From Agathobacter sp. (GTDB lineage Bacteria; Bacillota; Clostridia; Lachnospirales; Lachnospiraceae), in NCBI GenBank assembly GCA_017409825.1, contig JAFQRZ010000013.1, positions 1,503-65,502 of the forward strand: a DNA stretch of 64,000 bases. Direction: 5' to 3'. The number at the start of each line of letters is the position of its first letter. The stretch's first letter is position 1. The position numbers and the translations under genes are program-made. This document shows positions 32,800 to 64,000 of this stretch, piece after piece. Below the pieces are notes generated by a model, which ran no database searches, was not told where the DNA came from, and worked only from the letters and a program-made list of their open reading frames with translations.

Positions 32800-32802
32800 C
32801 GC

Positions 32803-33843: not shown

Positions 33844-33856
33844 TGTACGCGCCTCC

Positions 33857-34849
33857 TTACTCTAATTTTACTCTAGGGTCTACGATACCGTACATAAGGT
33901 CGGCAAGCAGAACACCTAAAACACTAAGAACTGCTAAGAACATATTGTATCCCATGATAAATGGAATATCACCACGATTCATAGCGTCTAATGCAACGTT
34001 ACCAATACCTGGTAAGTCGAATACCTGCTCGGTGATGATGGCACCTGAGAACAGGGATGGAATCAAACCAGCCATTGAAGTTACAAGTGGGATAAGTGTG
34101 TTACGGAAAGCGTGTTTGTTGATAACTACGTTTTCTTCACATCCCTTTGCACGTGCAGTACGAATATAATCGGAGTTCATAACTTCGAGCATATTGGTAC
34201 GAGTCATTCTCATTCGAGCACCGATACTTAAGATAACGATGGTAAGAATAGGAATAAATACGTGTCTTGCATAGTCGATAAAGAGCTCTACCCCTGTATA
34301 AGAAGTAGTCGCATCGATTAAGCCTGAGGCTGGGAACCATCCCAGCTTCAGCGCTAATACGTCTTTTAACATGTTTCCGAAGAAGAATGATGGTAAGGAA
34401 ATACCAATCATTACGAGGATGGTTACCACGTAATCTCGGATACTATACTGATGTGTTGCAGCTGTAATACCAAGTGGAATTGCAATCATAAATTCGAAAA
34501 TAGTTGCAATGAGGGAAATAGCAAAGGAAATTCCCATGTGCTGCACGATTACATCAGCTACAGGAATACCGTATACAAAGCTGGTTCCAAGGTCAAACTG
34601 GAACAAAGCGGTAAGCCAGCTGAAGTATCCACCGAGAATACCCATAAAGCTGTCATCACCCAAGCCGTACATCTGGTACATAGCATCTACGGTTTCCTGA
34701 CTAACAGTTGCCCCACCCTGGTTGATGGCGTTGATTTTATCCTGGATAAAGTCAACTGGCATCAAACGGATTAGGAAATAAATAATCATGGATACACCGA
34801 TAAGGATGAACACTGATTGTACTAATCGTTTTAAAATATACTTAAACAT
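33857..34849 (-). CDS. oppB: oligopeptide ABC transporter permease
   Basis: 330 aa. MFKYILKRLVQS start typical of OppB/DppB, and EAA-type loop DYIRTARAKG. Confidence 0.85.
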   Translation of the reverse strand: MFKYILKRLVQSVFILIGVSMIIYFLIRLMPVDFIQDKINAINQGGATVSQETVDAMYQMYGLGDDSFMGILGGYFSWLTALFQFDLGTSFVYGIPVADVIVQHMGISFAISLIATIFEFMIAIPLGITAATHQYSIRDYVVTILVMIGISLPSFFFGNMLKDVLALKLGWFPASGLIDATTSYTGVELFIDYARHVFIPILTIVILSIGARMRMTRTNMLEVMNSDYIRTARAKGCEENVVINKHAFRNTLIPLVTSMAGLIPSLFSGAIITEQVFDLPGIGNVALDAMNRGDIPFIMGYNMFLAVLSVLGVLLADLMYGIVDPRVKLE

Positions 34850-34864
34850 AAATTCACTCCCAAA

Positions 34865-37441: not shown

Positions 37442-37457
37442 TGTGTTCTACTCCTTT

Positions 37458-46294: not shown

Positions 46295-47065
46295 ATGACG
46301 AAAGAGTCCACGATGCGATTCCATCGCATTTATAACATTCTATTCAGTATCGTTATTATCATCGCCGGCATCTGCCTAATCATCGGTGTGTTGACGATAT
46401 ACAACTCAGGCGACCAGCCTTTTTCAAGAGAAAGCGTAGCCGCTACCTTCTCTACCATTGCTTTCCCAGTGTATCTGACATTGGTGATGGCGGTAATCAG
46501 CTTTATCTGGGAAATCATTTCCCCTTCTGATAAGGAAAAAACGCCAAAGGCAAAGGACTATCCTGCACTGCTCGCTAACCTTTATGAAAAGAAAGACTTT
46601 TCGAGTGGCGAACCTGCTATCCAGGAAGAAATTCATACCCTTTGGAAGAACAGAAAAATGCACACTATCATTCGTACCATTGTATTAGTGGTATGCAGCG
46701 CAGTCTTCTTATTCTATGCATTGAATAGTGCCAACTTCCACCAAAGCGAAATCAACGGTTCTATGATTCAAGCCATGAAGGTATTAGTTCCATGCTTCCT
46801 GATTGCCTTTGCGTATGCACTGTTTGTTGCAATCCATAACGAAAAAAGCATGGAAAAAGAAATGGAGCTTGTGAAGAAACTTCCAAGTGTTTCTGATGCA
46901 ACAGAAAATGAAATCATAACAGAAGAAAAACGTCTCAGTCCTTATCGCAACGCAATCCTTGTTGTAGCGATTATCCTGGTCGTTTATGGATTTTTAAATG
47001 GCGGTACGATTGATGTATTGGCAAAAGCCATCAACATCTGTACCGAATGTATTGGATTGGGGTGA
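46295..47065 (+). CDS. polytopic membrane protein with C-terminal CXXC tail
   Basis: 256 aa. At least 5 hydrophobic segments. Ends ...GGTIDVLAKAINICTECIGLG. GGAGGA RBS. 5 nt upstream of the next gene. Confidence 0.7.
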   Translation: MTKESTMRFHRIYNILFSIVIIIAGICLIIGVLTIYNSGDQPFSRESVAATFSTIAFPVYLTLVMAVISFIWEIISPSDKEKTPKAKDYPALLANLYEKKDFSSGEPAIQEEIHTLWKNRKMHTIIRTIVLVVCSAVFLFYALNSANFHQSEINGSMIQAMKVLVPCFLIAFAYALFVAIHNEKSMEKEMELVKKLPSVSDATENEIITEEKRLSPYRNAILVVAIILVVYGFLNGGTIDVLAKAINICTECIGLG

Positions 47066-47070
47066 TATAA

Positions 47071-48546
47071 ATGGGAAAATTAGTTCAAAAGATAAAAGAC
47101 CTTATGCCTAGCAAGCGCAAATGGATTCAGTTATATACCGCATTGCTCTACAATGCAAATCTGAAAGGTTTCGTACAAGGCAGTATTTACAAAGGAAACT
47201 CCAAGATACTCTGTGCGCCAGGTATCAACTGCTACTCCTGTCCTGGTGCAGTAGCAGCCTGTCCGCTCGGTTCTTTACAAGGTGCTATCAGCTCTGACAA
47301 GAGCACACTTTGGTATGTTGGTGGCATTCTCCTACTGTATTCCATTTTATTCGGAAGAATGATTTGTGGATGGCTTTGTCCATTCGGTTTCATTCAGGAG
47401 CTTGTGTACAAAATCAAAACACCAAAGATGAAAAAGAACAAAGTGACACGATTGCTTTCATATCTAAAATACGTTATTCTCGTATTCTTCGTATTTATCG
47501 TACCGATTACTTACGCATTTCGTGACACTCCTCTTCCAGCCTTCTGCAAATACATTTGTCCAGCAGGCACATTAGAAGGTGGTATGATGCTTCTCTCAAA
47601 CAAAGTAAATGCCAGCTACTTCTCCATGTTGGGACCTATTTTTACTTGGAAATTCCTCCTCATGGTAAGTATCATGGTCGGATGTGTATTCATCTTCCGT
47701 TTATTCTGCCGTTTCCTTTGTCCGCTCGGTGCACTGTATGGATTGTTCAACAAGCTATCCTTCTTCGGTGTCAAAGTGGAAGAACATAAATGCGTCAACT
47801 GTAACCTTTGTGTCAACCATTGTAAGATGGATGTCAAAAAGGTCGGCGACCAGGAATGTATCAGTTGTGGCGAATGTATCAATGTCTGCCCAACCGATGC
47901 CATCCAATGGAAAGGCTCTGGGCTTCTTCGCAAGAATCATAGCATGGATGACCATCCAGAAGAAACCAAAAAAGCTCGCAATACCACGCGCGCGATTACT
48001 ACTATCGCAATGCTGGCATTACTTATCGGTGTCATCGCTTACTACTGGCAGACCACGCCAGACTATGTACAGCCGGCGGAAGGCAACCAGGTCGGCGATA
48101 CCTGCTACAGTTACGATTTGACCCGCGTTGACGGTACTGGCATTTTAGAAGGCACCACCATCAACCCTGTCGAAACTGGCAAAATCACCATCATCAACTT
48201 CTGGGGAACCTGGTGTACACCATGTGTCAACGAATTGCCATATTTCGACCAGATTGCAACCAACTACGCAGATGACGTAACTGTCATCGCTGTTCATACT
48301 GACATGATTGCAGACACTGCACCGGCCTATATCGCAGGACATTATCCAGATTCCAACATCCTTTTCGCAAAGGATGACCCTAGCGATGGTGGAACAGCAG
48401 AAGTTTACTACTCTGCTCTTGGTGGTCGCGACACCTACCCATACACCGTAGTTCTCGACGAACACGGCGTCATCGTAAAAATCTTCTTCGAAGCATTACA
48501 TTATGAAGATTTGGAAGCGGTAGTGGAACAGGAATTGGAAAAATAA
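47071..48546 (+). CDS. NapH/NosR-like membrane polyferredoxin fused to a C-terminal TlpA-type thioredoxin domain
   Basis: 491 aa. CYSCPGAVAACP. Three CX3CP motifs (CGWLCPFG, CKYICPAG, CRFLCPLG). CVNCNLCVNHC and CISCGECINVCP. Extra TM, then INFWGTWCTPC thioredoxin fold. Confidence 0.8.
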   Translation: MGKLVQKIKDLMPSKRKWIQLYTALLYNANLKGFVQGSIYKGNSKILCAPGINCYSCPGAVAACPLGSLQGAISSDKSTLWYVGGILLLYSILFGRMICGWLCPFGFIQELVYKIKTPKMKKNKVTRLLSYLKYVILVFFVFIVPITYAFRDTPLPAFCKYICPAGTLEGGMMLLSNKVNASYFSMLGPIFTWKFLLMVSIMVGCVFIFRLFCRFLCPLGALYGLFNKLSFFGVKVEEHKCVNCNLCVNHCKMDVKKVGDQECISCGECINVCPTDAIQWKGSGLLRKNHSMDDHPEETKKARNTTRAITTIAMLALLIGVIAYYWQTTPDYVQPAEGNQVGDTCYSYDLTRVDGTGILEGTTINPVETGKITIINFWGTWCTPCVNELPYFDQIATNYADDVTVIAVHTDMIADTAPAYIAGHYPDSNILFAKDDPSDGGTAEVYYSALGGRDTYPYTVVLDEHGVIVKIFFEALHYEDLEAVVEQELEK

Positions 48547-50326: not shown

Positions 50327-53300
50327 TTAGAATTCTTTTTTTCTCATAACAACGCTACCAGCGATTGCAGCTGCACCAAGTGCAAGAACTGCGAACCAAA
50401 GAGCGAAGTTTGTTGAATCACCTGTCTGAGGAACATCAACGTCAACTTTTTCTGTTAAAAGAACGTAGTCTGAGCAGTGTTCCTGAGTAACACTTACTTT
50501 ACCATCAACTACTTTTGCATCACAGATGTATTTCAATGTACCATCTGCTAAAATCTGATGATAGTATAATGTTTCAATCTTCTTTTCAATGATTGATGCT
50601 GGAACTTCAATTGTAATAGCTGCTTTTCCAGGAAGCTTACCTTCATGTGAGAATTCTACTTTTAATACGAAGTTCTTGTCAGTAATCTTATCGTTCTTAG
50701 CTACTGTTTCGTCTTTTACATCTTCTACAACGTTTACAGTTAAGTTGAGTTCGATTTCATCGTTTTCTTTTAATTCGTTTGGATCGAATGTCATTGTAAC
50801 TTTATCACTTGTCGTAGGAAGTTCAAGTGGAGCTTCATCCTTGATAGCCTGTTCGATGTGTTCGTCTAAGTATTCTTTGTCAACTACTACATCTTTACCT
50901 TCTTCTGGAGTTGGAAGTGGAACAACAACTGTGTTGTCTGCTTCTTCATCTTCTGTTCCAGGAACATAGTAGCAAGCGAACATCCAAGCATCATCTTCTG
51001 TGAATCCAAGGAATCCATCTTCACCATACCAGCCAGCATAAGCACCAGCATTCTTTAAGATGGTTACTAAATCTGTTGTTAATGGATATAAACCATCTTT
51101 GTTTGCTGCTGCAACATATTCTAATACTGCATCATTGTAGTTAATCTTTGCAATGATTTCGCCATCTTCTGTGATGTATTCAACAATCTTTCCTAAACCA
51201 GCTGCATCTGCTAATGACATAATGCTATCATTTAAATCTACATAAAGGATAGGGCCATTTGCAGAATTTAAGTGGTAGAAACCATCTTTACCAAGAACAG
51301 CTGTATCAACTTCTGTATCTTCTACATCTACATATTCAAGACCTTCTAAAACAGTTTCGAATTTTTCTGGTGTTACAGTATTTTCATAAACTGTCCATTC
51401 TACTTCTTCTTTCACTTCTGCTGCTTTGTATGAAACAGTTACATCAACTTTTGTTGTTCCTTCAGCAGCAGTTAAACCTACTAAGAATGTCTGACCTACA
51501 GAAGTGCATTCAATACTTACTGTATTTGTAGCATTTTCTGTAATCTTGTTAGGGAATGATGGAGTATTCCAATTTTCTACCTTAACTCCTGTTGGAGCAG
51601 TAATTGTGTATGTACCTACTTTGTCAGGTGTTAATTCGAAAAGAGTTGTAACAACTGTAGTATCTAATGTAACTGAGCCTGTTACAATTGCTTCATATTT
51701 TCCAGCATCATTTGCATTTGTTGCTGGTTTTGTAGTTGGTTTTTCTTCTTCTTTTTCAGCACCTTCTTCAAATGTTGCTGTAAAATCAACGGTAGTGCTT
51801 GAGTAAGCCTTCACAACAATAACGTCACCTTTCTTAACTGCAGTAACATTTGTTGTTTTGTTTGTACCACGCTCTAATGGTTCACCATTCAATTCGTATG
51901 CATATACATTTTTGAAATTATCTGCATCTTCTTCACTAATTACAAGTGTTAACACACCATCAGCTGTAGCTGTGAATGTGTAGTAAATATTGTCATAATT
52001 ACATGTTGCTGTATATTTACCATTTGTAGTAATTTCAAATGGTTTTTCATAAGTTCCATCTGGAGCATTCGTTGAGCCACCTTCTCCACCTTCTGTTGTT
52101 GCTGGAGCTAATGAAACTCTATAATTCTGACTTGATTCTGTGTTATTTACAGCTACAAAATTAATTGTACTACTAGTTCTTGGAGAAACAACTTTTACCT
52201 TTGCTGTACCATTTGTATCTGCTGTTTCAATCATATTTGGATTCAAATCTTCATAAGTTCCAACTACAAAACCTGTAGCACCAACTACTGTCAAATCATA
52301 TTCGCCTGGAGTAGCTAAAACTGAGAAGTAATATGTTGCACCAGGAGCAACTGTAATAGTAGAAGCTGTACCATTAGTTGCAAGTGTAGTATTTGGTGCA
52401 TCCTCTGTACCAACTACTGGTGTTGGATCTGGATTAGGTGTTGTACCTGTACCAGTTCCTGATGTGAAAGCAAATGTCCAATTTACAGTACCTGCATACT
52501 GAGTATATGGATCCTCTGCATTATATGTGTTAATTTCAATATTAACAATTTCACCTGCTGCTACCGAAATACTTGTTGAAGCATTAATAGTTTCATCTCC
52601 AGAAGTATAACGTTCACCATAATTTCCAGCATCATAGTTGGCTACTAAATAATTCCAACCTGTTGTATTATTTTCTGTGTCCATTGTTACAGTCACAGTT
52701 CCGGCCTGAGTAGCTGTCCACTGATAATAATATCCTGTCTGTCCAGTAACAATTTCAGCTGTATTTTCACCAACTACTGGAGTTTCCTGAGAACCATAGG
52801 TTCCTGTTGCAACAGCATGAGCAAAATCAAGTTCAATTGCTGCATCCGAAGAGTTAATAATTGAATAACTATATTCAGGCTGACTAAAATATACCTTTAA
52901 AGCACCATTTACAGCAGAAAGATCAACGCCTGGATCCCACCACTGACCATTACCTGCAACATAGAATCTAAATGCATCAGTTGTCTCTCCAGTTACGTTA
53001 AGGATATATTCTCCTTCAAGTGCTGGTTTGCTTACGAAATACATTGTTGCACCTGCAGGAATCGTCTGCGTAACTTCTGATTCAACAACCACTGGATTTA
53101 ATTCTGTACCTACCGCCGGAGCGTCAATTGTTTCTGTTGTAATTTTATATGTAACAACTTCACCTTCTGGAGCATAAACCTGAACATAAACAGTCTGGTC
53201 TGGAGCAACATCTAAAGTCATTGATGAAGCATTTGCAGTCTCAGAAGAATAGTAATCCTGTCCTAAATACACTTCCCAATTTTCGCCCGTTTCAATTGTT

Positions 53301-54478
53301 ACTGTTACTCGAGTCCAATCTGTTGTGATAATTTCTGTATTATCTGGTGTATAAGAATTCTTAGCCTCAAATCCCTTAGAATCAGCAACACCATCTGCCG
53401 CAACAAAACCAAGCGTCCAGTTAACTGTACCTTCAACCATCGGTTGTGGCCAGCTCATTGAATTCTGATCAAAAGCTGTGCCAATCATAATATCCACAAC
53501 GTCTCCGGCACTTACAGTAAATGTTTCTGTTGCAACTATCTCATCATCATCACTCGTATGCTCATCACCATATTTAGATGCAGCAATATTATCTACTCTA
53601 TACAGCCAAGCATCTGTTTTTGTTGTATCAATAGCAACTGTAACCGTTCCTGCCTCTGGAGCAACCCATTGATAGTAATATCCTGAATATGCAGAATCAA
53701 TCTCTACTGTATTTTCACCAACATCTGGTGTATCAGGATAATTAGTGGTCGCACCAACAACACTATCAATAGTAAAGTTAAGCACAACATCGTTGGCTCC
53801 TGTATTAATTACTTGATACGAATAAGATGGATTATATTCGGTATCGATTGAAAAAATAGGACTCTTCAATGTTGCATCTACCGCATTAATTTCAGTAGCA
53901 GGATTCATCATTCCACTTCCTGGAATATAGAATTTGAAGCTATCTGACGCAGCACCACCTTCAATAGTTAATCTGTAGTCACCATTTGAATATGGCATAG
54001 TCTTAAAATACATTGTTGCACCAGCATCAATTGTAACTTCTTGATCCCAACTAACTTCCTTTGGGTTTAACTCAGACCCCTCTGCTGGAGCCTCAATTGT
54101 TTCTGTTGTAATACTGTATGTAACAGTTCCATTCTCAGCACCTACATACATCTGTACATATACTTCAGAATCTGGTGCTACATCATAAGTCTGTGTCGTT
54201 GCATCACTCGCAGAACTTGAATACTGAACACTACTCTGTCCTTGATTAATACAAAAATCCCAACCATCACTAGCACTTTCGATTGTAACTGTAATACGTG
54301 TCCAATCTGTTGTGGTAATTTCAGTATTATCTGGCGACCATGTATTCTCTGCTGTATATTCTTTTGAATCCACAACAGTTGTAACACCATCTTCAGCAAA
54401 TACTGTCATTGGTAAAAGTGATGCTACCATCATTACTACTAATGCTAAGCTCATCACTTTTTTCATGATTTTTTTCAT
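50327..54478 (-). CDS. sortase-anchored cell-wall surface protein with duplicated beta-sandwich modules
   Basis: 1383 aa. Signal peptide MKKIMKKVMSLALVVMMVASLLPMTVFA. C-terminal VPQTG (50420-50434) plus hydrophobic stretch plus RKKEF sorting signal. Confidence 0.85.
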   Translation of the reverse strand: MKKIMKKVMSLALVVMMVASLLPMTVFAEDGVTTVVDSKEYTAENTWSPDNTEITTTDWTRITVTIESASDGWDFCINQGQSSVQYSSSASDATTQTYDVAPDSEVYVQMYVGAENGTVTYSITTETIEAPAEGSELNPKEVSWDQEVTIDAGATMYFKTMPYSNGDYRLTIEGGAASDSFKFYIPGSGMMNPATEINAVDATLKSPIFSIDTEYNPSYSYQVINTGANDVVLNFTIDSVVGATTNYPDTPDVGENTVEIDSAYSGYYYQWVAPEAGTVTVAIDTTKTDAWLYRVDNIAASKYGDEHTSDDDEIVATETFTVSAGDVVDIMIGTAFDQNSMSWPQPMVEGTVNWTLGFVAADGVADSKGFEAKNSYTPDNTEIITTDWTRVTVTIETGENWEVYLGQDYYSSETANASSMTLDVAPDQTVYVQVYAPEGEVVTYKITTETIDAPAVGTELNPVVVESEVTQTIPAGATMYFVSKPALEGEYILNVTGETTDAFRFYVAGNGQWWDPGVDLSAVNGALKVYFSQPEYSYSIINSSDAAIELDFAHAVATGTYGSQETPVVGENTAEIVTGQTGYYYQWTATQAGTVTVTMDTENNTTGWNYLVANYDAGNYGERYTSGDETINASTSISVAAGEIVNIEINTYNAEDPYTQYAGTVNWTFAFTSGTGTGTTPNPDPTPVVGTEDAPNTTLATNGTASTITVAPGATYYFSVLATPGEYDLTVVGATGFVVGTYEDLNPNMIETADTNGTAKVKVVSPRTSSTINFVAVNNTESSQNYRVSLAPATTEGGEGGSTNAPDGTYEKPFEITTNGKYTATCNYDNIYYTFTATADGVLTLVISEEDADNFKNVYAYELNGEPLERGTNKTTNVTAVKKGDVIVVKAYSSTTVDFTATFEEGAEKEEEKPTTKPATNANDAGKYEAIVTGSVTLDTTVVTTLFELTPDKVGTYTITAPTGVKVENWNTPSFPNKITENATNTVSIECTSVGQTFLVGLTAAEGTTKVDVTVSYKAAEVKEEVEWTVYENTVTPEKFETVLEGLEYVDVEDTEVDTAVLGKDGFYHLNSANGPILYVDLNDSIMSLADAAGLGKIVEYITEDGEIIAKINYNDAVLEYVAAANKDGLYPLTTDLVTILKNAGAYAGWYGEDGFLGFTEDDAWMFACYYVPGTEDEEADNTVVVPLPTPEEGKDVVVDKEYLDEHIEQAIKDEAPLELPTTSDKVTMTFDPNELKENDEIELNLTVNVVEDVKDETVAKNDKITDKNFVLKVEFSHEGKLPGKAAITIEVPASIIEKKIETLYYHQILADGTLKYICDAKVVDGKVSVTQEHCSDYVLLTEKVDVDVPQTGDSTNFALWFAVLALGAAAIAGSVVMRKKEF
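52457..54370. repeat. tandem duplication of an approximately 310-330-aa coding module
   Basis: Residues 37-365 (53384-54370) and 366-674 (52457-53383) align end to end (e.g. PDNTEI(T/I)TTDWTR(I/V)TVTIE, GYYYQW, GTVNWT). Divergent at DNA level. Confidence 0.85.
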
Positions 54479-56657: not shown

Positions 56658-57710
56658 TTACTTATACACACTTTCCCAAGTGATATCCGTTGCTGGATAT
56701 TTTCCGCGTCGGTTTGGAATTGCAGAAACATGAATCATAATACTATCACCTTGTGACACTTCCAACTCAATGTACTGCCTTCCTTGCTCATCGGTCAGTC
56801 CGTCTGCTTCAAATGTTCTGGTCGCAGAATTACGATTGTTTGTTACAGTCATCTCAGAATCAACTGTTGCACTAAGATAAAAACGAAGCTTTCCTGTTTT
56901 CTCTGCAGTATATTTATAATAATATCCCGTTTCTTTTCCCTCTGCCAAACTCTTCTTATACTGTCCAATTTTGGCTATTACTTCAGGATTCTGGCGACTT
57001 CCATACGCATTGCTGAATTTCAAAGTAAATGCTTTTGCAGAACCACCTTTGTTTCCTATCTGCAGGGTCACATAATCGCTTGCCAATGCATTCTCCACTG
57101 TAATGGATACTTTTCCATTTTTGGCATCGTATCTCGTTCCATTAGAAGTAATAATATATGCATCTGCATCTTCGATTGTAAGAATCAACCCACCAATTCT
57201 CTGAATACTATAGTATAATGCTTTTCCAGATGGAATGCTTACTGTCTGTACTTTCATGTTGTTATCTGGAATTTCAACATAAGGCTGTTTCTTACTACCT
57301 TCACCGAGAATTTCTTCTTCGTTTTTGTTTCCGTCATTCCCGTTGCTATTGTTATTATCGTTGTTATTCGTTGAACCACCAGACACCTCTGTATCTTCTT
57401 CCGTCTCGGTTTCCACCTCAACTTCCGTTCCCATTTCGGTTTCTATCTCTGTTTCAAGCTCTGTACCGATTTCGGTTTCTATCTCAGAGTCTTCTTCTGT
57501 TCCTGGAACAAGTGATTCACTCTGTTCTACTGTGTCAGACTGGGAATCCATCTCTGTTCTCCCTTGCGAAGATCCCTCATCTTCTTTCTTATCACTGCTA
57601 CCACCAACGATTAATGCGATAACTAAGATAAGTACTACCGCACATACGATACCACCACCGATAAGAATCTTCTTATCAAGGTTTTTGATTTTCTCTAACA
57701 ATTCTTTCAT
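56658..57710 (-). CDS. membrane-anchored exported protein: acidic low-complexity linker plus double beta-sandwich (PPC-like) domain
   Basis: 350 aa. N-terminal TM ILIGGGIVCAVVLILVIALIVGG. ETEIGTELETEIETEMGTEVEVETETEE linker. The C-terminal 219 aa are paralogous to the next gene. Confidence 0.7.
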   Translation of the reverse strand: MKELLEKIKNLDKKILIGGGIVCAVVLILVIALIVGGSSDKKEDEGSSQGRTEMDSQSDTVEQSESLVPGTEEDSEIETEIGTELETEIETEMGTEVEVETETEEDTEVSGGSTNNNDNNNSNGNDGNKNEEEILGEGSKKQPYVEIPDNNMKVQTVSIPSGKALYYSIQRIGGLILTIEDADAYIITSNGTRYDAKNGKVSITVENALASDYVTLQIGNKGGSAKAFTLKFSNAYGSRQNPEVIAKIGQYKKSLAEGKETGYYYKYTAEKTGKLRFYLSATVDSEMTVTNNRNSATRTFEADGLTDEQGRQYIELEVSQGDSIMIHVSAIPNRRGKYPATDITWESVYK

Positions 57711-57721
57711 CCTATCTCACC

Positions 57722-58807
57722 TTAAAATTTCATTTCCCATGTAACATCTGTAGCAGGATATTTGAATCTCTTGGTTGGCATTGCATGTACCTGGATGATA
57801 ATTTCATCACCAGAGTTTACCTCCAACTCGATATAGCTCTTTCCTGCTCCATCTGTTTTTACATCTCCATCAAAATTTCTCTGAGCTGAATTTCTATTAT
57901 TCGTTACTGTAATTCCACTATCCACTGATGCAGAATTGATGTAGAAACGAAGTGTTCCTGTCTGCTGAGCATAGTATTTATAATAATGTCCTGCTGCGTT
58001 TCCTTCTTCTACATGCACACTGTATGAACCTGTAGCATTAAGTTTCGTTGGATTCATTTGAGAACCTTCTGCATTGGTAAATTTAAGTGTAAATGCCTTC
58101 GCACTCGAACCACTATTTCCAATCTGAATTACGATATCCTCACTTGCCATCGCAGCCTCTAACTGGAAGTACACCTTTCCACCACTCGCATTATGTCTAG
58201 TACCATCTGATTCAATAATATAAGCGTTTGCATCGTTAATTGTCACATACATACCACCAACACGCTGAATGGAATAATATAATGTTTTGCCTGCTGGAAC
58301 ACTTTCTGTAGTAAGTGTCATCGTATCAAGGTTTGGAATCTCTTTATATGGATCATTCTCGCTTCCTTTTCCAAGAATTTCCTGCTCTTCTGATTCTACT
58401 TCAGATGAACCTGGTGTTTCTGAAGAGCCTGGTTTCTGTGAAGAACTTGGCTGCTGTGAAGAGCTTGGCTGTTGTGAGGAACTTGGCTGCTGTGAAGAGC
58501 TTGGTTTCTGGCTTTCACTTTCTTTCTCAGATTCCTTTTCGCTTTCTTTTTCAGACTCCTTCTGGCTCTCAGACTCTGATTCTGTCACTTCTGTTTCTGT
58601 ATTTTTCTCTGTTTCAATCTCTGTATTAAACACTTCTGACGAACCTGCTTCGGTTCCAGACTGTGTATCATTCTGATTTTCAGACTGATTTTCGCTCTGT
58701 GAATTGTTTGTATTGCCACCAGATGGCTTATCGCCATTCTTGCCACATGCGCAAAGGCAAACTGCCAAACAAAGCACAAAAGCTGCTACTAAAAATTTCT
58801 TTTTCAT
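57722..58807 (-). CDS. lipoprotein paralogue of the previous gene with SSSQQP / KESE repeat linker
   Basis: 361 aa. Lipobox VCLCACG. C-terminal domain shares LYYSIQR(I/V)GG, SAKAFTLKF, TVTNNRNSA and KYPATD(I/V)TW with the 350-aa protein. Confidence 0.75.
   Translation of the reverse strand: MKKKFLVAAFVLCLAVCLCACGKNGDKPSGGNTNNSQSENQSENQNDTQSGTEAGSSEVFNTEIETEKNTETEVTESESESQKESEKESEKESEKESESQKPSSSQQPSSSQQPSSSQQPSSSQKPGSSETPGSSEVESEEQEILGKGSENDPYKEIPNLDTMTLTTESVPAGKTLYYSIQRVGGMYVTINDANAYIIESDGTRHNASGGKVYFQLEAAMASEDIVIQIGNSGSSAKAFTLKFTNAEGSQMNPTKLNATGSYSVHVEEGNAAGHYYKYYAQQTGTLRFYINSASVDSGITVTNNRNSAQRNFDGDVKTDGAGKSYIELEVNSGDEIIIQVHAMPTKRFKYPATDVTWEMKF
58397..58570. repeat. in-frame 18-bp (PSSSQQ-type, x6) and 12-bp (KESE) tandem repeats
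   Basis: 18-bp units from 58397 to 58504 (ctgctgtgaagagcttgg and variants), then KESE-coding 12-bp units to about 58570. Confidence 0.85.
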
Positions 58808-58839: not shown

Positions 58840-59253
58840 CTACTCTGCCATTGTAAGAGTAAGTTCTGTTGCACCTGCTTCGAAATATACGTATGCATCT
58901 TCACCTGCAGTTAATAATTTTGCTTTGTATTCATTAGATTCTTCCAAACGGAAGGTAGCTACACCATTCGCATCTGTTGCTACTGGAGCAAAACAGTTTT
59001 CTGCATTACAAACCTGAATCATCTGGCCTGCTACTGGGTTGCCATTTGCATCTAATAATGTTACTTTGTATTCGATTTTGCCATCGTCTACGTTTTCAGA
59101 TTCACTTTCTTTTTCTGTATCTTTGTTTGCTTCGCTGTTAGCTTCTGTGTTCTGCTTACCAGTATCTTCTGTGTTACCAGCATTTCCGCCACATGCACAA
59201 AGGCTAAGTGCCACGCAAAGCATAAGTACTACTGTTACGATTTTCTTTTTCAT
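58840..59253 (-). CDS. small lipoprotein with single Ig/prealbumin-like domain
   Basis: 137 aa. Lipobox LSLCACGG. YKVTLLDANGNPVAGQMIQVCNAENCFAPVATDANGVATF. Confidence 0.65.
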   Translation of the reverse strand: MKKKIVTVVLMLCVALSLCACGGNAGNTEDTGKQNTEANSEANKDTEKESESENVDDGKIEYKVTLLDANGNPVAGQMIQVCNAENCFAPVATDANGVATFRLEESNEYKAKLLTAGEDAYVYFEAGATELTLTMAE

Positions 59254-59283: not shown

Positions 59284-59910
59284 TTATTCGATATCGCTAA
59301 TATTGCGGATTACCGTCTGTTCATAGTCCTCAGCAGTGAAGAAATGGAACAATTTATTAAACTCTTTTACATCCGTAATCATTCCAGTATGTTTAAAACT
59401 TACAATTCCGTAACGGTCGATCACGATTGTCGTTGGATATGCCTGAAGTTCCATGCGCTGTGCCCATTCTTCATCACATACTGCCATTGGGAAGGTCAGC
59501 TCGAACTTCTTCTGGAATTCTGCTACGGTTTCATCTGTACCATCATAAGGATTCACCGCGATAATTTCAATTGCATCTTTGTAATTCTCATACGCGTCCT
59601 GCATATATGGGAACTCCATCTGACATGGGCCGCAATTTATATACCAGAAATTAAGAACAACCGCCTTCTTTTCTTTCAAAATCTCAGAAATCTTGTAGGT
59701 CTTACCTTCTGGTGTAGTCACAGACATATCTGCAAATACATCTCCTCGTTTGAATGTCACACCTTCTAATTCATTTTCCGAAAGAAGCTGCAGTTCGGAT
59801 TCCTGTTCGGTATCATTTCCTGCATGATTTCCACACGCAACGAAGGTTCCCATTACGAGAACCATCGTTGCGAAACATATTATTAATTTTTTAACTGTTA
59901 ACTGTTTCAT
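59284..59910 (-). CDS. TlpA-family thiol-disulfide oxidoreductase lipoprotein
   Basis: 208 aa. Lipobox TFVACG. VVLNFWYINCGPCQMEFP thioredoxin active site (CGPC). Confidence 0.85.
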   Translation of the reverse strand: MKQLTVKKLIICFATMVLVMGTFVACGNHAGNDTEQESELQLLSENELEGVTFKRGDVFADMSVTTPEGKTYKISEILKEKKAVVLNFWYINCGPCQMEFPYMQDAYENYKDAIEIIAVNPYDGTDETVAEFQKKFELTFPMAVCDEEWAQRMELQAYPTTIVIDRYGIVSFKHTGMITDVKEFNKLFHFFTAEDYEQTVIRNISDIE

Positions 59911-59927
59911 AGAAATACCTTTCTATC

Positions 59928-61154
59928 TTACTGTACGTAAGCACACATAAATAACCAAGCGTTTTCTACATTAAGTCCCGGAATTGGATTGCCAGCTGTA
60001 TCTTTGAAGATAAAGCCTGGATTTGAGCTATCCCACCAGCCTACATATTCGCCTCTTTCCTGGATGATTGTTTTCAAATCTTCGGTAAGAGGATATACAC
60101 CTGTATTGTCATCTACGTATTCAATGTATTCTAAGAGACATTCGCTGTAGCTTACTTTTTCTACAAAGTTGCCATCTTCGTCAAATTCATATTTTGAAAT
60201 ACCAGAACGTTCCAAAATCGTTGCGAAACATGGTAAGTATGGCTCTGTTGGATCTTCTGCCAAGTAAACAACTACCAATGGACCATTTTCATTGTTTAAG
60301 TGATAGAATCCATCTTCTTTGTTTAATACAAGCTTGTATTCTGTCGTAGAGAAGATGTCGAAATCTACTAAATTCTTACCAGCTGGCATTGTGTATTTGG
60401 AAAGTTCAACTGTTTTTTCGTAGATTGTCCATTCTTCATCCGCCAACGTTTTCTGTGGATCACCAATACGGTTGATGCAAAGAACTGCGTTTGTTTTCTT
60501 ATCAGAATCCACACCAACAACTGCAACCGTTGTACCTGTATTGCCTGTGCCAATCATGCTTTCGCTGATGGACATTGTAAATTTGCCATCTTTAACTTCT
60601 GCTGCACTATTTTCCTGTACGAAATGTGGTGCACCATAGTAGCCGATTTCTGTTTTGCTTTCTGCAACAACAGAAAATTCATACGTACCAGCCTGTGTAG
60701 GAACGAAAAGGAAATAGCTTCTCTTTCCTTCTGCAAGCTCTACGTTTGTACAACCTGCATTTACATAGTAGGCATCTGTTTCTTCACCACTTACAAAAAG
60801 GATTTCTGGTTCTTCCCCTAATTTGTTAGAGACGATTACTTCTGCTGTTGTTTTACTTCCTGTTACCTGTGTTTCTTCGAAATAATAAGAAACCTCTTTG
60901 TCTATAGATGTTACCTTGAGTGTGTATGTGCCTTTTGCTAATTTCTTTGTAGCGACACCGTTTTCATCACAAATCTGTACACCTACTTTTTCGTCACCAT
61001 CGTAGAATTCTACCATAGTGTCTTTACCATACGTGTTGCCGAGTGCATCTTTTACCGTTACCTTATATTCTGCTTCTCCGCCACCACATGCAACGAGTAA
61101 CATTGCGCTGCACATAAGTGCAGCCACAATGATAAGTTTTTTCAAATTCTTCAT
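59928..61154 (-). CDS. lipoprotein: Ig-like N-domain, beta-sandwich, C-terminal DGFYH...AWLFMCAYV module
   Basis: 408 aa. Lipobox LLVACGG. YKVTVKDALGN...DENGVATKKL. The C-terminal 169 aa are shared with the 1383-aa and 921+-aa proteins. Confidence 0.7.
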   Translation of the reverse strand: MKNLKKLIIVAALMCSAMLLVACGGGEAEYKVTVKDALGNTYGKDTMVEFYDGDEKVGVQICDENGVATKKLAKGTYTLKVTSIDKEVSYYFEETQVTGSKTTAEVIVSNKLGEEPEILFVSGEETDAYYVNAGCTNVELAEGKRSYFLFVPTQAGTYEFSVVAESKTEIGYYGAPHFVQENSAAEVKDGKFTMSISESMIGTGNTGTTVAVVGVDSDKKTNAVLCINRIGDPQKTLADEEWTIYEKTVELSKYTMPAGKNLVDFDIFSTTEYKLVLNKEDGFYHLNNENGPLVVVYLAEDPTEPYLPCFATILERSGISKYEFDEDGNFVEKVSYSECLLEYIEYVDDNTGVYPLTEDLKTIIQERGEYVGWWDSSNPGFIFKDTAGNPIPGLNVENAWLFMCAYVQ

Positions 61155-61182
61155 GATATTACTCCTTTTCTAAGCAAACCAA

Positions 61183-64000
61183 TTAGTTCGCTGGTCCAAG
61201 ATAATCATAGTAATAGCAGAGTTTTGTCCATGCATGGTCTACATTTTCAAATGTATACTTATTCATTACTAACTGGAGGATTTCTGCTAATTCTTCTGTT
61301 ACAACTACACAGCCGTTACGTTCTGCACTGCCAGTTTCAACCTTGCTGCAGTAAGCACGAATTGCTTCTGTATAATCTTCTCCGTCACCATGGTATTTGC
61401 CAGCATAAACATCTTTTAACTGATATTCTTCTGCATAACCATCGTAATCTTCACCCCAAAGTTCTTTGAGGTACTTGTCAGCAGCTTCTACACTACCCTG
61501 TGCTTCAATCACAGAAAGCACATACATATCGTTTTCTGACTTACTGAAGTCGAAGCCGCCCATATCAATCATACCTTTCACGCCCTGGTTGGTCATAATC
61601 GGATTACTGAAAATACCTGTGATACCTGTAAAGTCACAGTAGAGCTTGCTGCCCTTCTTGCCATTGCCTAAATCTTCGTAGTAAATTCCGTCATCGCCAA
61701 GAACTACATCAATACCACCAGCGATTACATAGTACATAGCGTCGCCTGTTGCGTTGCTATCGTAAGTGAAGTAACCAGGTGATGCCAATCTAAAGTGGTT
61801 GTAGGTTGGAGCAATGTATTCGATCGTGTAGTTAATTGTACCTTCTTCGTAAACATCCCAGAATGCGATGTCAATGTAGTAAGGTGTACCAGCTTCCATG
61901 TAGAATACCATAGAAACTTCGCCTTCTTCCTGGAACATTCTTTCATCTGGCTCGTATACAAGAAGTTCTTTACGATCAGCACTGAAAATCCAAGCATCTA
62001 CGCCCTGTTCAGAGTCGTTCTGTGAAGTGATACGATATACACCAGACTGACTTGGAATAAATTCTGCCATCATACCTCTTGGAAGGATTGCTCTATTATA
62101 GTAGAAATAGTTCCCACTTCCGAGGTGTGCTTTGTATGCAGAGAATGTCGCAAGACCTTTAATTGGGTCTTCCACATGAACCTCTGAACCATAAGCATCG
62201 TAATATTTACAAATCTTTAACCATTCGTTTTCATCGTCTTCAAAACCATATTTTTCAGCAAATGCCTGTAAAAGCTCTGCTAATTCTTTTGTAACAGTAC
62301 ATACACCGGATATGGATGCATTTGAAGCATAGTTTGCATACTGTTCTAATTCTTCATAGCGATCTACACCATCTACTTCGAATTTACCATCCTCCTGAAT
62401 GAGTCCGTATACATGATTTTCTTCATTGAACTGTGTATAGTTTAATAATTCAGCTAAAAGAAGTGGACCATTTGCAGTGCCTACATGATAGTAGCCATCT
62501 GCTGGATTATATACGACATCTGCATAAGTATAAGAACCATCTTCCTGTTCTACTGCAGGATATCTAGGAATCTGTACCGTTGTATTTTTATCAATCGCAC
62601 TTGCGTCAACTACACGTAAGTTCTTGATAAATGCTGTATCATCACCTTCGTTTGTATCTTCATCCTTTAAGAAGCAAAGTGCAAGTTCATAAGTACCATC
62701 TTCTACAGCTACCCATGGGTAACATGTTGTCCATGAAGGATTTTCGCTTGCCCCTGAAATCTGGTAAATATCCTCATCATTTACGATTACAATAAGTGCA
62801 TCATTTAAATATTCACTAGATACGATGTAATCAAATGCAATTGCCTGACCTGCTTTCAATTCGATGTCTGCATAGATAATTGCATAAGAATCTTCGATTC
62901 CCTTGTTGGAAGCATAGATACATTTATCTCCATTCTTTTCACCAAGAACGAATGGCCATGTAAATTCTGCTGCATCGCCTTCTTCTGGACGGTAGGTGAT
63001 ACCTTCTGTACCATTGATAGCAGCTTCAATATCTTCTGATTTTGGCATTTCTACTGTAGGTTTAATCTGAGCTACCAAATCACCGATACCATTTACACAA
63101 AGCTTCTGTTCATAATCCTTTGCTGTAAAGTGATCAAATGCAGAAATAAATGGTCTAAGGCTGGTAATCGCACCAGATTCCACACAACAAATTACACCAT
63201 ACTGGTCGATGAGTACTGAGGTTGGATAACCCTGAATACTAAATACATTTGACCATGAGGTAGGACATTCAGCCATAATGAATGGTAAATTGTTATTTGT
63301 CTGGAATGCCTTCACTGCGTCAGCACCTTCGTTCATTGGGTCAAGAGCAAGGATTTCGACATCATCCTTATATTTGTTATAAGCTTCTGCCATAACAGGG
63401 AACTCTTTTACACACCATGAACAGTTGGTGTACCAGAAGTTCAACATAACCATTTTCTTTTCTTCTAAAAGCTTAGAAAGCTGAACCTTTTCACCGTCTG
63501 GAGTTGTGATTGTAAAGTCATACATTACATCACCTAAACCAAGCTGTGCTGTAGAGATGTCATCACCTGTAATAAGAGAAGATGTAAGTACGATTTTGGC
63601 TTTTTTGCCATCGAACTCATAGTAATCTTCTACTTCATATCCCTTTGGTGCACCATCGATTTCGATGTAGTAATTGTCACTTTCAGGAAGCTCGAGCTCT
63701 ACTGTACCATCTTCTTCTAATTCAGCAGCATCTGCCAAATCTGTTAATTTCTTGTCATTATATACACGAACGTCGATATCAGAGAGAATCATACCTCCCT
63801 TTGTCTTAACGCTTACGGTGTATGTAGTTTTCTTGCCGGAACCTGTACCTGTGTTTCCGCCACCACCTTGTGAACCACTACCGCTAAGTCCTACAACCAA
63901 TGCAACGATTAACGCTACAACAGCTACAGCACCAACGATAAGAGCCACGAGGAATTTTTTGTCTGTCTTAGCACGTTCTACAATTACATTAAATTTTTCT
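61183..64000 (-). CDS. large anchored exported protein: TM, Ig-like unit, TlpA-type thioredoxin (CSWC), beta-sandwiches, two DGxYx...AWxKxCYYYD modules (5' end outside window)
   Basis: The track starts at GTG 63948, but the frame stays open to 64000 (...EKFNVIVERAKTDKKFLVALIVGAV), so the N-terminus is off-window. FWYTNCSWCVKEFP at 63412-63423. Confidence 0.8.
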   Translation of the reverse strand, partial: EKFNVIVERAKTDKKFLVALIVGAVAVVALIVALVVGLSGSGSQGGGGNTGTGSGKKTTYTVSVKTKGGMILSDIDVRVYNDKKLTDLADAAELEEDGTVELELPESDNYYIEIDGAPKGYEVEDYYEFDGKKAKIVLTSSLITGDDISTAQLGLGDVMYDFTITTPDGEKVQLSKLLEEKKMVMLNFWYTNCSWCVKEFPVMAEAYNKYKDDVEILALDPMNEGADAVKAFQTNNNLPFIMAECPTSWSNVFSIQGYPTSVLIDQYGVICCVESGAITSLRPFISAFDHFTAKDYEQKLCVNGIGDLVAQIKPTVEMPKSEDIEAAINGTEGITYRPEEGDAAEFTWPFVLGEKNGDKCIYASNKGIEDSYAIIYADIELKAGQAIAFDYIVSSEYLNDALIVIVNDEDIYQISGASENPSWTTCYPWVAVEDGTYELALCFLKDEDTNEGDDTAFIKNLRVVDASAIDKNTTVQIPRYPAVEQEDGSYTYADVVYNPADGYYHVGTANGPLLLAELLNYTQFNEENHVYGLIQEDGKFEVDGVDRYEELEQYANYASNASISGVCTVTKELAELLQAFAEKYGFEDDENEWLKICKYYDAYGSEVHVEDPIKGLATFSAYKAHLGSGNYFYYNRAILPRGMMAEFIPSQSGVYRITSQNDSEQGVDAWIFSADRKELLVYEPDERMFQEEGEVSMVFYMEAGTPYYIDIAFWDVYEEGTINYTIEYIAPTYNHFRLASPGYFTYDSNATGDAMYYVIAGGIDVVLGDDGIYYEDLGNGKKGSKLYCDFTGITGIFSNPIMTNQGVKGMIDMGGFDFSKSENDMYVLSVIEAQGSVEAADKYLKELWGEDYDGYAEEYQLKDVYAGKYHGDGEDYTEAIRAYCSKVETGSAERNGCVVVTEELAEILQLVMNKYTFENVDHAWTKLCYYYDYLGPAN

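Follow-up and report, generated by a model that had tools for sequence, protein, structure and literature searches.

A large, so far uncatalogued domain family in Clostridia and the conserved surface thioredoxin operon that it marks

The stretch of DNA analyzed here (64 kb, referred to as the window) contains four segments, distributed over three proteins, that align as homologous copies of one module. This module represents a large and so far uncatalogued domain family, found here in Clostridia only, and it marks a conserved operon in which four modules in three proteins go together with two surface thioredoxin domains. Judging from its predicted structure it is an autonomous extracytoplasmic alpha/beta domain, and considering the architecture of the proteins that carry it, ligand binding would be its most likely function.

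Module copies and their genes in the window

The initial annotation had located the copies at 59931-60437, 61186-61692, 62188-62499 and 50957-51403, and translation of these ranges yields exactly the segments that were described. Refined boundaries were obtained by scanning the window with the family HMMs, which are matched by all four copies, as proposed for members of the family. All four are on the minus strand. Copy 1 (class A; 59931..60446; HMM envelope E=2.5e-67) spans approximately residues 237-408 of the 408-aa lipoprotein A. Copy 2 (class B-C-terminal; 61186..61782; A5 HMM E=5e-100) is divergent and has the His of the DGxYH motif replaced by Tyr. Copy 3 (class B-internal; 62188..62610; E=3.4e-22) is a minimal version, without strands one and two and without the GWWD...F.D loop. 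Copy 4 (fourth-protein class; 50957..51412; E=2e-44) covers approximately residues 1023-1174 of the 1383-aa protein C and is located around 200 residues before the sorting signal of this LPXTG protein. A fifth copy was not recovered from the 64-kb window in a six-frame HMM scan.

Pairwise blastp comparisons connected A to C (E=1.4e-27), A to B-internal (E=1.3e-7), B-internal to C (E=1.4e-7) and B-C-terminal to B-internal (E=1.2e-13), the weakest pair being A and B-C-terminal (E=0.02). The significance of the four-segment alignment had been set beforehand as the test of the proposal, and it was borne out in a profile-profile comparison, as hhalign aligned the B-C-terminal family with the canonical module over 136 columns that span the whole module (probability 95.6%, E=1.1e-8), with an insertion of around 50 residues in the window copy. 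On the strength of these alignments the four segments are shown to be homologous copies of one module. The landmarks listed earlier were also present in the translations: DG[FY]YH...NGP was seen in A, C and B-internal and is degenerate in B-C-terminal (DGIYYEDLGNGKKG), LEY or equivalents could be discerned, G[VL]YPLT.DL..I is found in A and C, the B copies having GVCTVTKELAELLQ / NGCVVVTEELAEILQ instead, and all four copies have W...C.Y near their end.

Gene A (59928..61154, minus strand), as delineated by its ORF and AF2 model, encodes a lipoprotein (lipobox LVAC) composed of an Ig domain, a PPC-like domain and the module, and has 1513 homologues at E<=1e-3. The PPC or collagen-binding-domain-like beta-sandwich (60462..60806, minus; strands at 117-231 in the AF2 model) was matched by Foldseek to the ColG collagen-binding domain and the PPC of B. 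anthracis collagenase (TM(target) 0.54-0.60, E 9e-5 to 2e-3). The N-terminal Ig-like spacer (60825..61076, minus; strands at 27-110) is similar to Big_1 and CarboxypepD_reg, with a weak Big_1 match, and a Foldseek match to 3e8v (TM(target) 0.77 over 85 columns) was placed on it by size and not by alignment coordinates. Gene B (61183..64000, minus) was reported as encoding at least 921 aa, which is right: 950 aa are called on other contigs, the initial 12 codons being situated beyond the window end. Its product consists of a TM anchor, an Ig domain, a ResA-like thioredoxin (CSWC; Pfam AhpC-TSA/Redoxin at residues 139-260), a beta-sandwich X, a module, a PPC-like domain and a second module.

Further along the minus strand follow a ResA/TlpA-like thioredoxin lipoprotein with a CGPC active site (59284..59910; Pfam AhpC-TSA 5.8e-18, Redoxin 6e-16, and the NCBIfam ResA subfamily at 3e-26, which is below its cutoff), a small Ig-like lipoprotein of 137 aa (58840..59253; Big_1-like match of 8e-7, below cutoff), two ORFs for paralogous double-jellyroll surface proteins (56658..58807), a 361-aa lipoprotein and a 350-aa TM-anchored protein, and gene C (50327..54478), whose wall-anchored product has a PQTGD sorting signal (50336-50431) and Gram_pos_anchor/LPXTG matches near threshold (Pfam, NCBIfam). 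Two associated genes lie on the plus strand (46295..48546). The first (46295-47065) codes for a TM protein that ends in a CXXC tail of the CD1871A family, and the second (47071-48546) for a fusion of a NapH/MauN-type polyferredoxin and a ResA-like thioredoxin with a CTPC site (Pfam Fer4_5, Fer4, Redoxin); for this pair, NCBIfam NF040920 scored above its cutoff and a NapH subfamily was matched as well. On basis of Pfam, the region 30639..46068 (minus) encodes a cell-envelope-proteinase-like protease (S8+PA+fn3_5) with BspA LRRs, a 443-aa protein without assigned function and an Opp-type ABC importer.

Family, fold and conserved residues

Homology searches with the module recovered 1085, 688 and 143 clusters (50% identity) at E<=1e-3, 1e-10 and 1e-30, respectively. 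The genome matches listed (n=80) were all Clostridia MAGs, from animal gut wherever the source was stated. The earlier suggestion that this is not a named domain held up, as Pfam-A (2025 copy) and NCBIfam (release 20, 2026) contain no model that covers the module, be it in the three proteins of the window or in 20 diverse homologues, and no family matched more than two of 41 diverse modules scanned at E<=5. AlphaFold2 predicted a compact alpha/beta structure for the A copy alone (pLDDT 96.6, pTM 0.91), with nine short strands and four helices. Foldseek found no neighbour of this model in the PDB (best E=0.16, TM<=0.16) or in BFVD (best E=0.13). A profile search against the PDB, the check suggested at the outset, returned only one weak and structurally inconsistent match.

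Several candidate relatives were rejected. The PaREP1/HEPN-like helical protein (PDB 2jpu/2q00) had a profile E of only 0.012 to 4e-4 over 60 residues, and was discarded on the three beta-strands that the matched region holds in the AF2 model and the lack of a Foldseek match; 2jpu is all-helical. Solved CBMs, adhesin tip domains and cohesins in the PDB did not reach a Foldseek E<1e-3 or TM>0.5. A PPC or collagen-binding domain was rejected on basis of the alpha/beta model, to which Foldseek matched no such domain, and a ResA/TlpA/DsbE thioredoxin fold on the lack of CXXC and of a thioredoxin Foldseek match; matches to thioredoxin models are confined to the separate lipoprotein and, in B, to residues 139-260. 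The YG repeats of CW_binding_1, which are arranged in tandem, measure about 20 residues each and carry a GW..YYF..G signature, were dismissed, since the module has a single hairpin with a loosely similar motif (DGFYHLNNENGP), and CW_binding_1 gave no match at E<=5 in the 41 modules. Within the libraries searched (PDB and BFVD for the fold), the module has no detectable relative in sequence or structure.

The core of the module comprises around 105 residues, full forms around 170 and the insertion-bearing B-C-terminal copy around 195. As family signature we propose the DG[FY]YH-x5-GP hairpin, a Tyr in helix 2 (LEY), G-x-YPLT-x-DL, G-W and a terminal A-W-[LM]-F-x-C-[CY]-Y, preceded by a beta-sandwich. 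These motifs are 85-100% conserved among 191 non-redundant members, except for the terminal Cys (84%), and the B classes are recognisably degenerate with respect to the signature. In classes A and B-internal, D281, G282, Y284, H285, G291 and P292 are conserved for at least 90%; the fourth class largely keeps them (60-90% or more), and H285 is Tyr throughout the B-C-terminal class. D281, H285, D348 and D359 are conserved for at least 88% over the 191 modules, and ten aromatic positions for at least 85%. For many of the Gly, Asp and aromatic residues that are conserved, the role may be purely structural.

The cysteines were described less accurately in the initial annotation. Only the two copies of protein B were said to carry a Cys pair, the others keeping just the terminal Cys, yet the A copy has three (C309, C339 and C404), the B-C-terminal segment has four, and a single Cys is found in C. 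Frequencies among the 191 modules are 84% for the terminal C404, 72% for the vicinal C405, 64% for C339 and 30% for C309. The co-occurrence of C309 with C339 (p=7e-8) is suggestive of a subfamily disulfide. No Cys is invariant, CXXC and CXXCH motifs are absent, and a B-type Cys at the position of Y354 occurs in only 7 of the 191 modules; a variable Cys pair as defining feature of the family is not supported by this alignment.

A two-domain cassette in a conserved operon

The module had been characterized as a C-terminal cap or as located just before the stalk, which is general: it ends at most six residues from the C-terminus in 117 of 155 occurrences and directly precedes the stalk in two LPXTG proteins. 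In nearly all cases it follows a beta-sandwich domain, which is collagenase-PPC-like in protein A. The architectures of 149 representatives include Ig-PPC-module (54), (Ig)-thioredoxin-jellyroll-...-PPC-module (around 43) and PPC-module (17), with PPC-module as the commonest pairing. Beta-sandwich and module were also found with Dockerin_1 (in three of ten diverse homologues, and in six of ten proteins from loci outside the four-module operon) and in one LPXTG protein with Endonuclease_1, a wall-anchored nuclease. Thioredoxin and, in that one protein, the nuclease were the only enzyme domains seen fused to the module. Beta-sandwich and module constitute a two-domain cassette, which is found at the C-terminus of surface proteins with a lipid or TM anchor or directly precedes an anchor-side element (LPXTG stalk or dockerin), and as far as sequence tells the cassette is mobile and independent of thioredoxin. 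In the LPXTG proteins the module is wall-proximal and not distal, a position that fits a role in the cell wall or in assembly equally well as substrate capture.

The collagenase PPC/CBD domains (ColG s3a/s3b; B. anthracis) resemble the beta-sandwich before the module of protein A in structure, and beta-sandwich plus module likewise form a non-catalytic unit that is appended to the C-terminus of surface or secreted proteins. However, the module is alpha/beta and lacks a Foldseek match to these domains, the window protein sequences match no Pfam PPC model at threshold, and the module proteins have no peptidase domain in the same protein.

We surveyed 80 species-level loci and mapped the gene order in six. 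Exactly four modules were present in 48 of the 80, and the order in the mapped loci was B, A, a thioredoxin lipoprotein or fusion, a small Ig protein, a jellyroll protein or domain and the fourth-module protein, the gene for the latter directly following the jellyroll gene in four of the six. The association with thioredoxins was stronger than had been proposed, as a thioredoxin accompanies the module in 59-60 of the 80 loci (co-operonic in around 59) and shares a polypeptide with it in around 43 of the 149 representatives. Jellyroll domains homologous to those of the window occur in 55-56 loci, in large homologues fused between thioredoxin and module, and the small Ig-like lipoprotein in 57; in other species, parts of the operon are fused in one protein. 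Identity within a module class across species is 58-59% versus 23-30% between classes in one genome, which implies that the four classes are ancient. The flanks contain OppD/F-like ATPase ORFs in 23 of the 80 loci (immediately upstream of B in the two of these that were mapped), and a polyferredoxin, a CD1871A-like protein and an S8 protease adjoin the operon in 20, 18 and 15 loci, respectively. The protease/Opp link is neighbourhood-based and applies to only about half of the operon-type loci.

Possible functions of the module

As the best explanation of the whole we tentatively propose an autonomous domain family that would serve as non-catalytic recognition head for an extracellular polymer, its target being held near the surface thioredoxins. 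Possible ligands are substrate proteins or peptides, glycans of plant or host origin, and polymers of the cell wall, and the DG[FY]YH-x5-GP beta-hairpin with the aromatic residues around it is a candidate binding site; conservation of this motif across the paralogue classes is in favour of such a recognition head. Comparable non-catalytic surface binding is known for SusE/F-like SGBPs, CBMs and cellulosomal 'X' modules. Like these, the module proteins have a lipid anchor at the N-terminus, Ig-like spacers and a domain at the other end, and the module is also attached to dockerins, but it resembles none of the solved CBMs or SGBPs in sequence or fold, and its genomic partners are thioredoxins, a protease and Opp, not glycoside hydrolases.

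It seems unlikely that the paralogous modules (two in B, one in A and one in the fourth protein) would rather bind each other or the jellyroll and Ig proteins, and in this way hold the separately anchored operon products as one surface complex. The four ancient, class-specific paralogues and their constant number per operon (exactly four in 48 of 80 species) do point to a complex of fixed stoichiometry no less than to a ligand in common, and the fusion of components in single polypeptides elsewhere is a sign of physical interaction. Nevertheless, the cassette occurs by itself in dockerin proteins, where the dockerin already provides for assembly, and in the LPXTG nuclease, at a locus without another module, and the most conserved motif, DGxYH..GP, is common to the classes and not class-specific.

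Binding of the cell's own peptidoglycan or secondary wall polymer, by which the lipid-, TM- and sortase-anchored proteins would be positioned in the wall, is likewise improbable. The placement before the wall-spanning stalk in two LPXTG proteins is consistent with it, in the lipoproteins of around 410 aa the module would lie inside the wall thickness, and the aromatic-rich hairpin presumably resembles a single YG/choline-binding repeat. However, the module proteins are already anchored, covalently or by a lipid, versions with a dockerin are presented on scaffoldins at a distance from the wall, and CW_binding_1, SLH, LysM and SH3b gave no match at E<=5 in 41 modules.

Quite unlikely is a thiol-active domain or redox client, in which the thioredoxins encoded alongside would keep C404 (often a vicinal CC), C339 and C309 reduced or shuffle them, for thiol-disulfide exchange with substrates or covalent attachment of a cofactor. 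The co-occurrence or fusion with a ResA-like thioredoxin in most loci, the frequencies of the three cysteines and of C405, and the C309-C339 pairing are in line with this, and excerpts of PMC2665060 describe ResA and StoA as keeping client cysteines reduced. Yet the C copy has to do with one Cys, C404 is absent in 16% of modules, CXXC and CXXCH are lacking, and the dockerin and nuclease loci listed carry the module without a thioredoxin within 10 kb. A new extracellular enzyme, for instance a hydrolase that relies on Asp, His, Tyr or Cys residues of the conserved set, is very improbable: although the four Asp/His positions and C404 are well conserved in a domain without known relatives, the pattern is that of a non-enzyme because no catalytic-type residue set is invariant (H285 is lost in the entire B-C-terminal class and C404 is dispensable), the whole GWWD loop is deleted in B-internal, most of the conserved Asp/Gly are in turn-like D-G or N-G motifs, and placement as an appendage on other domains is typical of non-catalytic modules.

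As recognition head in the operon, the module would hold its target close to the ResA-like thioredoxin domains, for which the NapH-like membrane protein, a polyferredoxin-thioredoxin, or some other donor may supply the electrons. Lipoproteins of the cell surface that have a thioredoxin fold and an electron donor in the membrane are described, in excerpts of PMC3914529 and PMC2665060, for Etrx1/Etrx2-CcdA-MsrAB2 of S. pneumoniae and ResA/StoA-CcdA of B. subtilis. Similarly, the module shares its operon with ResA/TlpA-type thioredoxins (CGPC or CSWC) that have a lipid or TM anchor, and a membrane redox protein is encoded nearby. The module locus differs in that clients such as MsrAB, or for cytochrome-c maturation or cortex synthesis, are not encoded, and in that a NapH-type polyferredoxin-thioredoxin fusion takes the place of CcdA as candidate donor. 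Moreover, the thioredoxins are here fused to, or in one operon with, jellyroll, Ig and module domains, which are not known from those systems.

The neighbouring genes further recall PrtP/lactocepin and Opp of lactic acid bacteria, as an S8+PA+fn3_5 protease lies by the module operon in the window and 15 loci, and an Opp-type importer or its ATPases in the window and 23 other loci. The known system is not known to include thioredoxin or module proteins, and the association seen here is one of gene neighbourhood only. Reduction by thioredoxin raises the protease susceptibility of proteins, and a model of foraging by disulfide reduction draws on this general knowledge: disulfide-rich material that is bound by the module would first be reduced, after which the neighbouring S8 protease of the cell-envelope type could cut it and the Opp transporter import it.

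Module copies, their homology and conservation

The module is carried in the window by three open reading frames on the minus strand, and translation of the ranges proposed in the initial annotation returned the four segments with their landmarks where they had been placed. Protein A (59928-61154, minus strand) is a 408-aa lipoprotein with one copy, B (61183-64000, minus strand) has an internal and a C-terminal copy in a reading frame that continues past the end of the window, and C (50327-54478, minus strand) is a 1383-aa protein with one copy and a PQTGD sorting signal. A six-frame HMM scan of the window yielded exactly four copies and no fifth one. The length of '921+' aa given for B was correct, as the gene encodes 950 aa with the first 12 codons located beyond the window. 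Elsewhere (other contigs; positions 120-2972 of the related locus L081) the gene is called as 950 aa, beginning MEKLKGLGITIAEKFNV, and the GTG start assigned to B at 63948 merely reflects the truncation of the gene at the window edge (63949-64000). By eye, the N-terminal 1000 residues of C (50327-54478, minus strand) include repeated units, for example two occurrences of TTDWTR[IV]TVTIE around 350 residues apart, and several 'GYYYQW.A..AGT' sandwiches that are PPC-like (PPC denoting likeness to the beta-sandwich of protein A); no Pfam model matched these repeats or sandwiches.

Judged by sequence comparison, the four copies are homologous. Pairwise blastp connected A to C (E=1.4e-27, 34% identity over 170 residues), A to the internal copy of B (E=1.3e-7), the latter to C (E=1.4e-7) and the two copies of B to each other (E=1.2e-13); the only two weak pairs were those of the C-terminal copy of B with A (E=0.02) and with C (E=0.04). 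The significance of the four-copy alignment was borne out in a profile-profile comparison (hhalign), in which a profile of six aligned B-C-terminal orthologues (A5) was joined to that of 41 aligned diverse canonical modules (A4) with 95.6% probability and E=1.1e-8 over 136 columns, which extend from the first strand as far as the terminal C-Y-Y. There is a single insertion in the B-C-terminal class, and it measures about 50 residues in the copy from the window.

Conservation was analyzed over 191 non-redundant modules. Using the numbering of protein A, the residues present in at least 90% of them are V276, D281, G282, Y284, H285, G291, P292, Y336, Y343, D348, G352, Y354, P355, L356, L360, G368, W373, W400 and Y406. 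The DG[FY]YH-x5-GP hairpin is conserved to at least 90% in the A and B-internal classes, largely kept in the fourth class (that of C) and degenerate in the B-C-terminal class, where the His is replaced by Tyr. None of the cysteines is invariant in this set: C404 occurs in 84% of the modules, C405 in 72% (forming a vicinal CC), C339 in 64%, C346 in 36% and C309 in 30%, and Cys column statistics indicate co-occurrence of C309 and C339 (p=7e-8). The initial annotation had contrasted a Cys pair in the copies of B with a lone terminal Cys in the others; this was inaccurate, as there are three cysteines in the A copy and four in the B-C-terminal one, and the idea of a meaningful pair found no support, the B-type Cys at position 354 being present in 7 of the 191 modules. 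A Cys-His-Asp triad was also considered and rejected, since H285 and C404 are each missing from entire subfamilies.

Predicted fold and library searches

The AlphaFold2 model of full-length A, made with 70 orthologues (pLDDT 88.7), comprises three domains: an Ig-like domain (residues 27-110), a beta-sandwich (117-231) and the module (240-408). In Foldseek the beta-sandwich resembled the ColG collagen-binding and collagenase PPC domains, and the model also matched 3e8v, a small Ig-like structure. It is the domain before the module, and not the module, that resembles the collagenase PPC/CBD modules. Because all matches of the full-length model concerned the two domains at the N-terminus, Ig and PPC-like, and none informed on the module, the latter was modelled alone, on the basis of a 41-sequence diverse alignment (pLDDT 96.6, pTM 0.91). 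The predicted module starts with two short strands, followed by the DG[FY]YH hairpin and a strand after the GP, continues with a helix, a second hairpin (Y.FDEDG.F), the LEY helix and the YPLT strand, and ends with a long helix (DL..II), a variable GWWD...F.D loop and a final helix-strand (AWLF.C.Y). As neither the first two strands nor the GWWD loop is present in the B-internal copy, the core can be set at around 105 residues. No structural neighbour of this confidently predicted fold was found among solved structures.

Protein A has 1513 homologues (E<=1e-3) in a 90%-identity collection, and the sole name among them, for a protein of an Agathobacter MAG with 85% identity, is 'hypothetical protein'; this is also the only source name of 10 NCBI-held orthologues. 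When an eight-module profile was searched against 1.84 billion 50%-identity representatives, the module family comprised 1085 clusters at E<=1e-3, 688 at 1e-10 and 143 at 1e-30. The module had been taken for an unnamed domain, and this still stands: no Pfam-A or NCBIfam model lies over it in the window proteins or in 20 diverse homologues, 41 diverse modules gave no consistent match to these libraries even among the weak ones, and the module shows the defining feature of none of the existing families tested for membership. A likeness of DGFYH..NGP to the choline-binding YG repeat received no support from Pfam for the 41 modules. The sole match in all PDB sequences, 2jpu/2q00 (E=0.012 with profile A2 and 4e-4 with profile A4), was rejected, as the match is short, the matched region is predicted to be alpha/beta, whereas 2jpu/2q00 is presumably an all-helical bundle, and Foldseek did not recover it. 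Literature searches uncovered no article on either the domain or the operon, and the known Etrx and ResA/StoA systems were all that turned up. As a domain family the module falls outside everything contained in the libraries searched; uncharacterised domain families are, however, a common feature of metagenomes. The Pfam fusions seen in four metagenome predictions (P0189, P0192, P0193 and P0204) are chimeric assemblies rather than true architectures and would be misleading in a domain-architecture survey: reading of the sequences revealed abrupt, mid-domain junctions between a module protein and an unrelated cytoplasmic protein (a BlaI-like repressor, an aminotransferase, an AMP-binding enzyme and an oxidoreductase).

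Distribution, the four-module operon and other contexts

A scan of one genome per GTDB species, with an 8-sequence alignment as query, found 322 relatives, and 80 loci were kept. All are from Clostridia MAGs (Oscillospiraceae, Ruminococcus, Acutalibacteraceae, Lachnospiraceae, Agathobacter, Faecousia, Avispirillum, Faecalimonas and Lachnobacterium), and wherever a source was stated it was ruminant gut. The window sequence itself was present in gut metagenomes, sheep among them, all of these being DNA runs. In 117 of 155 occurrences, at most 6 residues separate the end of the module from the C-terminus. The architectures seen in 149 representatives (MOD, module; TRX, thioredoxin; JR, jellyroll) were Ig-PPC-MOD (54), Ig-TRX-JR-(Ig)-PPC-MOD and variants (around 43), PPC-MOD (17) and Ig-PPC-MOD-JR (12); a few representatives had two PPC-MOD units. 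Components that are separate in the window, namely the thioredoxin lipoprotein, both jellyroll proteins, the small Ig protein and A, constitute one polypeptide of 1000-1800 aa in other species. The module represents a conserved family of autonomous extracytoplasmic domains that has to date been found in Clostridia alone. It is paired with a beta-sandwich, and its carriers are anchored in four ways, through a lipid, a TM helix, a sortase signal or a dockerin. Jellyroll domains and surface thioredoxins, whose proximity the initial annotation had pointed out for the thioredoxins, are tied to the module both by genomic context and by fusion in one polypeptide.

Exactly four modules within 10 kb occurred in 48 of the 80 loci. 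Five of six mapped loci share the gene order of the window, namely B (Ig-Trx-X-MOD-PPC-MOD, X being another beta-sandwich), A (Ig-PPC-MOD), a thioredoxin lipoprotein, a small Ig protein, a jellyroll protein and the fourth-module protein, with the Trx, JR and fourth-module parts fused in some. The genes from B to jr350 are separated in the window by gaps of 11-32 nt. Considering that the modules of orthologues are 58-59% identical across species and those of paralogues 23-30% within one genome, the four module classes are ancient. Gene C is split from the rest of the operon in the window by two Rpn/PD-(D/E)XK transposase-like genes that flank it (49047-50276 and 55705-56601, plus strand), while the fourth-module gene directly follows the jellyroll gene in four of the six mapped related loci; the separation looks like a mobile-element insertion. 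The first transposase-like gene has an EEKTQEI-type tandem-repeat tail. A long low-complexity linker, with ESEKESEK... and SSQQPSSSQQP... repeats, connects the lipobox of the 361-aa jellyroll lipoprotein (57722-58807, minus strand) to its folded domains; in the 350-aa paralogue, the anchor is instead a TM segment and the linker is E/T-rich.

Several other genes recur around the operon. OppD/F-like ATPase ORFs were found in the flank of 23 of the 80 loci (directly upstream of B in both such loci mapped), a NapH/MauN-type polyferredoxin fused to a ResA-like thioredoxin in 20, a TM protein with a CD1871A-family CXXC tail in 18 and an S8 protease in 15. The window holds an S8+PA+fn3_5+BspA-LRR protease, an Opp importer and the polyferredoxin-thioredoxin pair. 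The protease (block 38767-46068, minus strand) is a 2433-aa surface protein that combines the S8+PA+fn3_5 composition of cell-envelope proteinases with six BspA-type LRR blocks and has a TM anchor at its C-terminus. After it come a 443-aa protein that matches no family and the Opp-type ABC importer; at 858 aa, the substrate-binding protein of this importer is of unusual length. The CD1871A-family TM protein and then the polyferredoxin-thioredoxin are encoded at 46295-48546 (plus strand), the latter with CX3CP motifs (by eye), Fer4 domains and a C-terminal ResA-like thioredoxin with CTPC. This pair, recurring beside the operon in 18-20 of the 80 species loci, is a candidate conduit that would carry electrons across the membrane to surface thioredoxins by a route other than CcdA/DsbD.

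At loci of Ruminococcus and other Oscillospiraceae that lie outside the four-module operon, Dockerin_1 accompanied the beta-sandwich and module in six of ten proteins scanned, and the same combination was found in P0238, P0270 and P0278. The dockerin loci (L025, L036, L039, L047, L050 and L051) belong to Ruminococcus, Acutalibacteraceae, Oscillospiraceae and unclassified Clostridia MAGs; some of these proteins carry two modules. The dockerins are of type I, and the cassette is therefore also a cellulosome-associated component. An Oscillospiraceae MAG (locus L054, 7640-10945, plus strand) encodes an LPXTG-anchored, module-bearing protein of 1102 aa with two N-terminal repeats, Endonuclease_1, a PPC-like sandwich, the module and a long DDTQ-repeat stalk; thioredoxin aside, Endonuclease_1 is the sole enzyme fusion seen for the module. 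Given these dockerin and LPXTG nuclease contexts, the cassette of beta-sandwich and module is mobile and can do without a thioredoxin at its locus.

Possible function and relation to known systems

We infer that the module is a non-catalytic recognition head, because it is appended to varied partners, because no plausible catalytic set is invariant and because one aromatic/His-bearing hairpin is conserved across the paralogue classes. Less likely rival readings are an assembly module, a wall-association module, a redox client or an enzyme. The dockerin and LPXTG contexts outside the four-module operon speak against assembly and redox-client functions as universal roles. That the module would be an enzyme fits poorly with the lack of an invariant catalytic set.

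Taking the module as a recognition head one step further, it might be a substrate-capture domain of new fold that marks an undescribed surface machine, widely conserved in Clostridia, foraging for disulfide-rich proteins, a proposal that we consider rather unlikely as it stands. An equally doubtful model for the operon, drawn from the gene neighbourhood and from the effect of thioredoxin on protease susceptibility, is that surface disulfide reduction assists proteolysis and peptide uptake. In the substrate-capture reading, electrons would cross the membrane via the NapH-type polyferredoxin-thioredoxin, helped by the CD1871A-family CXXC protein, as an alternative to CcdA/DsbD, and would pass on to the lipid- and TM-anchored thioredoxins; disulfide-rich dietary or host proteins would be held by the four module heads for reduction, cut by the cell-envelope S8 protease and taken up by Opp. 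Reduction by thioredoxin raises protease susceptibility, and the pairing of protease and Opp recalls the lactococcal PrtP-Opp system. The bacteria that host the NapH-thioredoxin fusion are not known to possess c-type cytochromes. The thioredoxins of the operon are like those of the known Etrx1/2 and ResA/StoA systems (PMC3914529 and PMC2665060), but the clients and the electron donor differ.

Whatever its function, with at least 1000 clusters at 50% identity and a confident predicted fold, the family is well suited both to a new domain-family entry and to structure determination, and it gives an annotation handle on thousands of 'hypothetical' surface proteins, cellulosomal dockerin proteins included. 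In the NapH-thioredoxin fusion there is a candidate, open to testing, for a new electron-export route to the cell surface. If the model is true, it would represent a new kind of Gram-positive surface system, in which extracellular thiol reduction is coupled to nutrient capture, and its hosts would be Clostridia that abound in gut and rumen, including Lachnospiraceae, Oscillospiraceae, Ruminococcus and Agathobacter.
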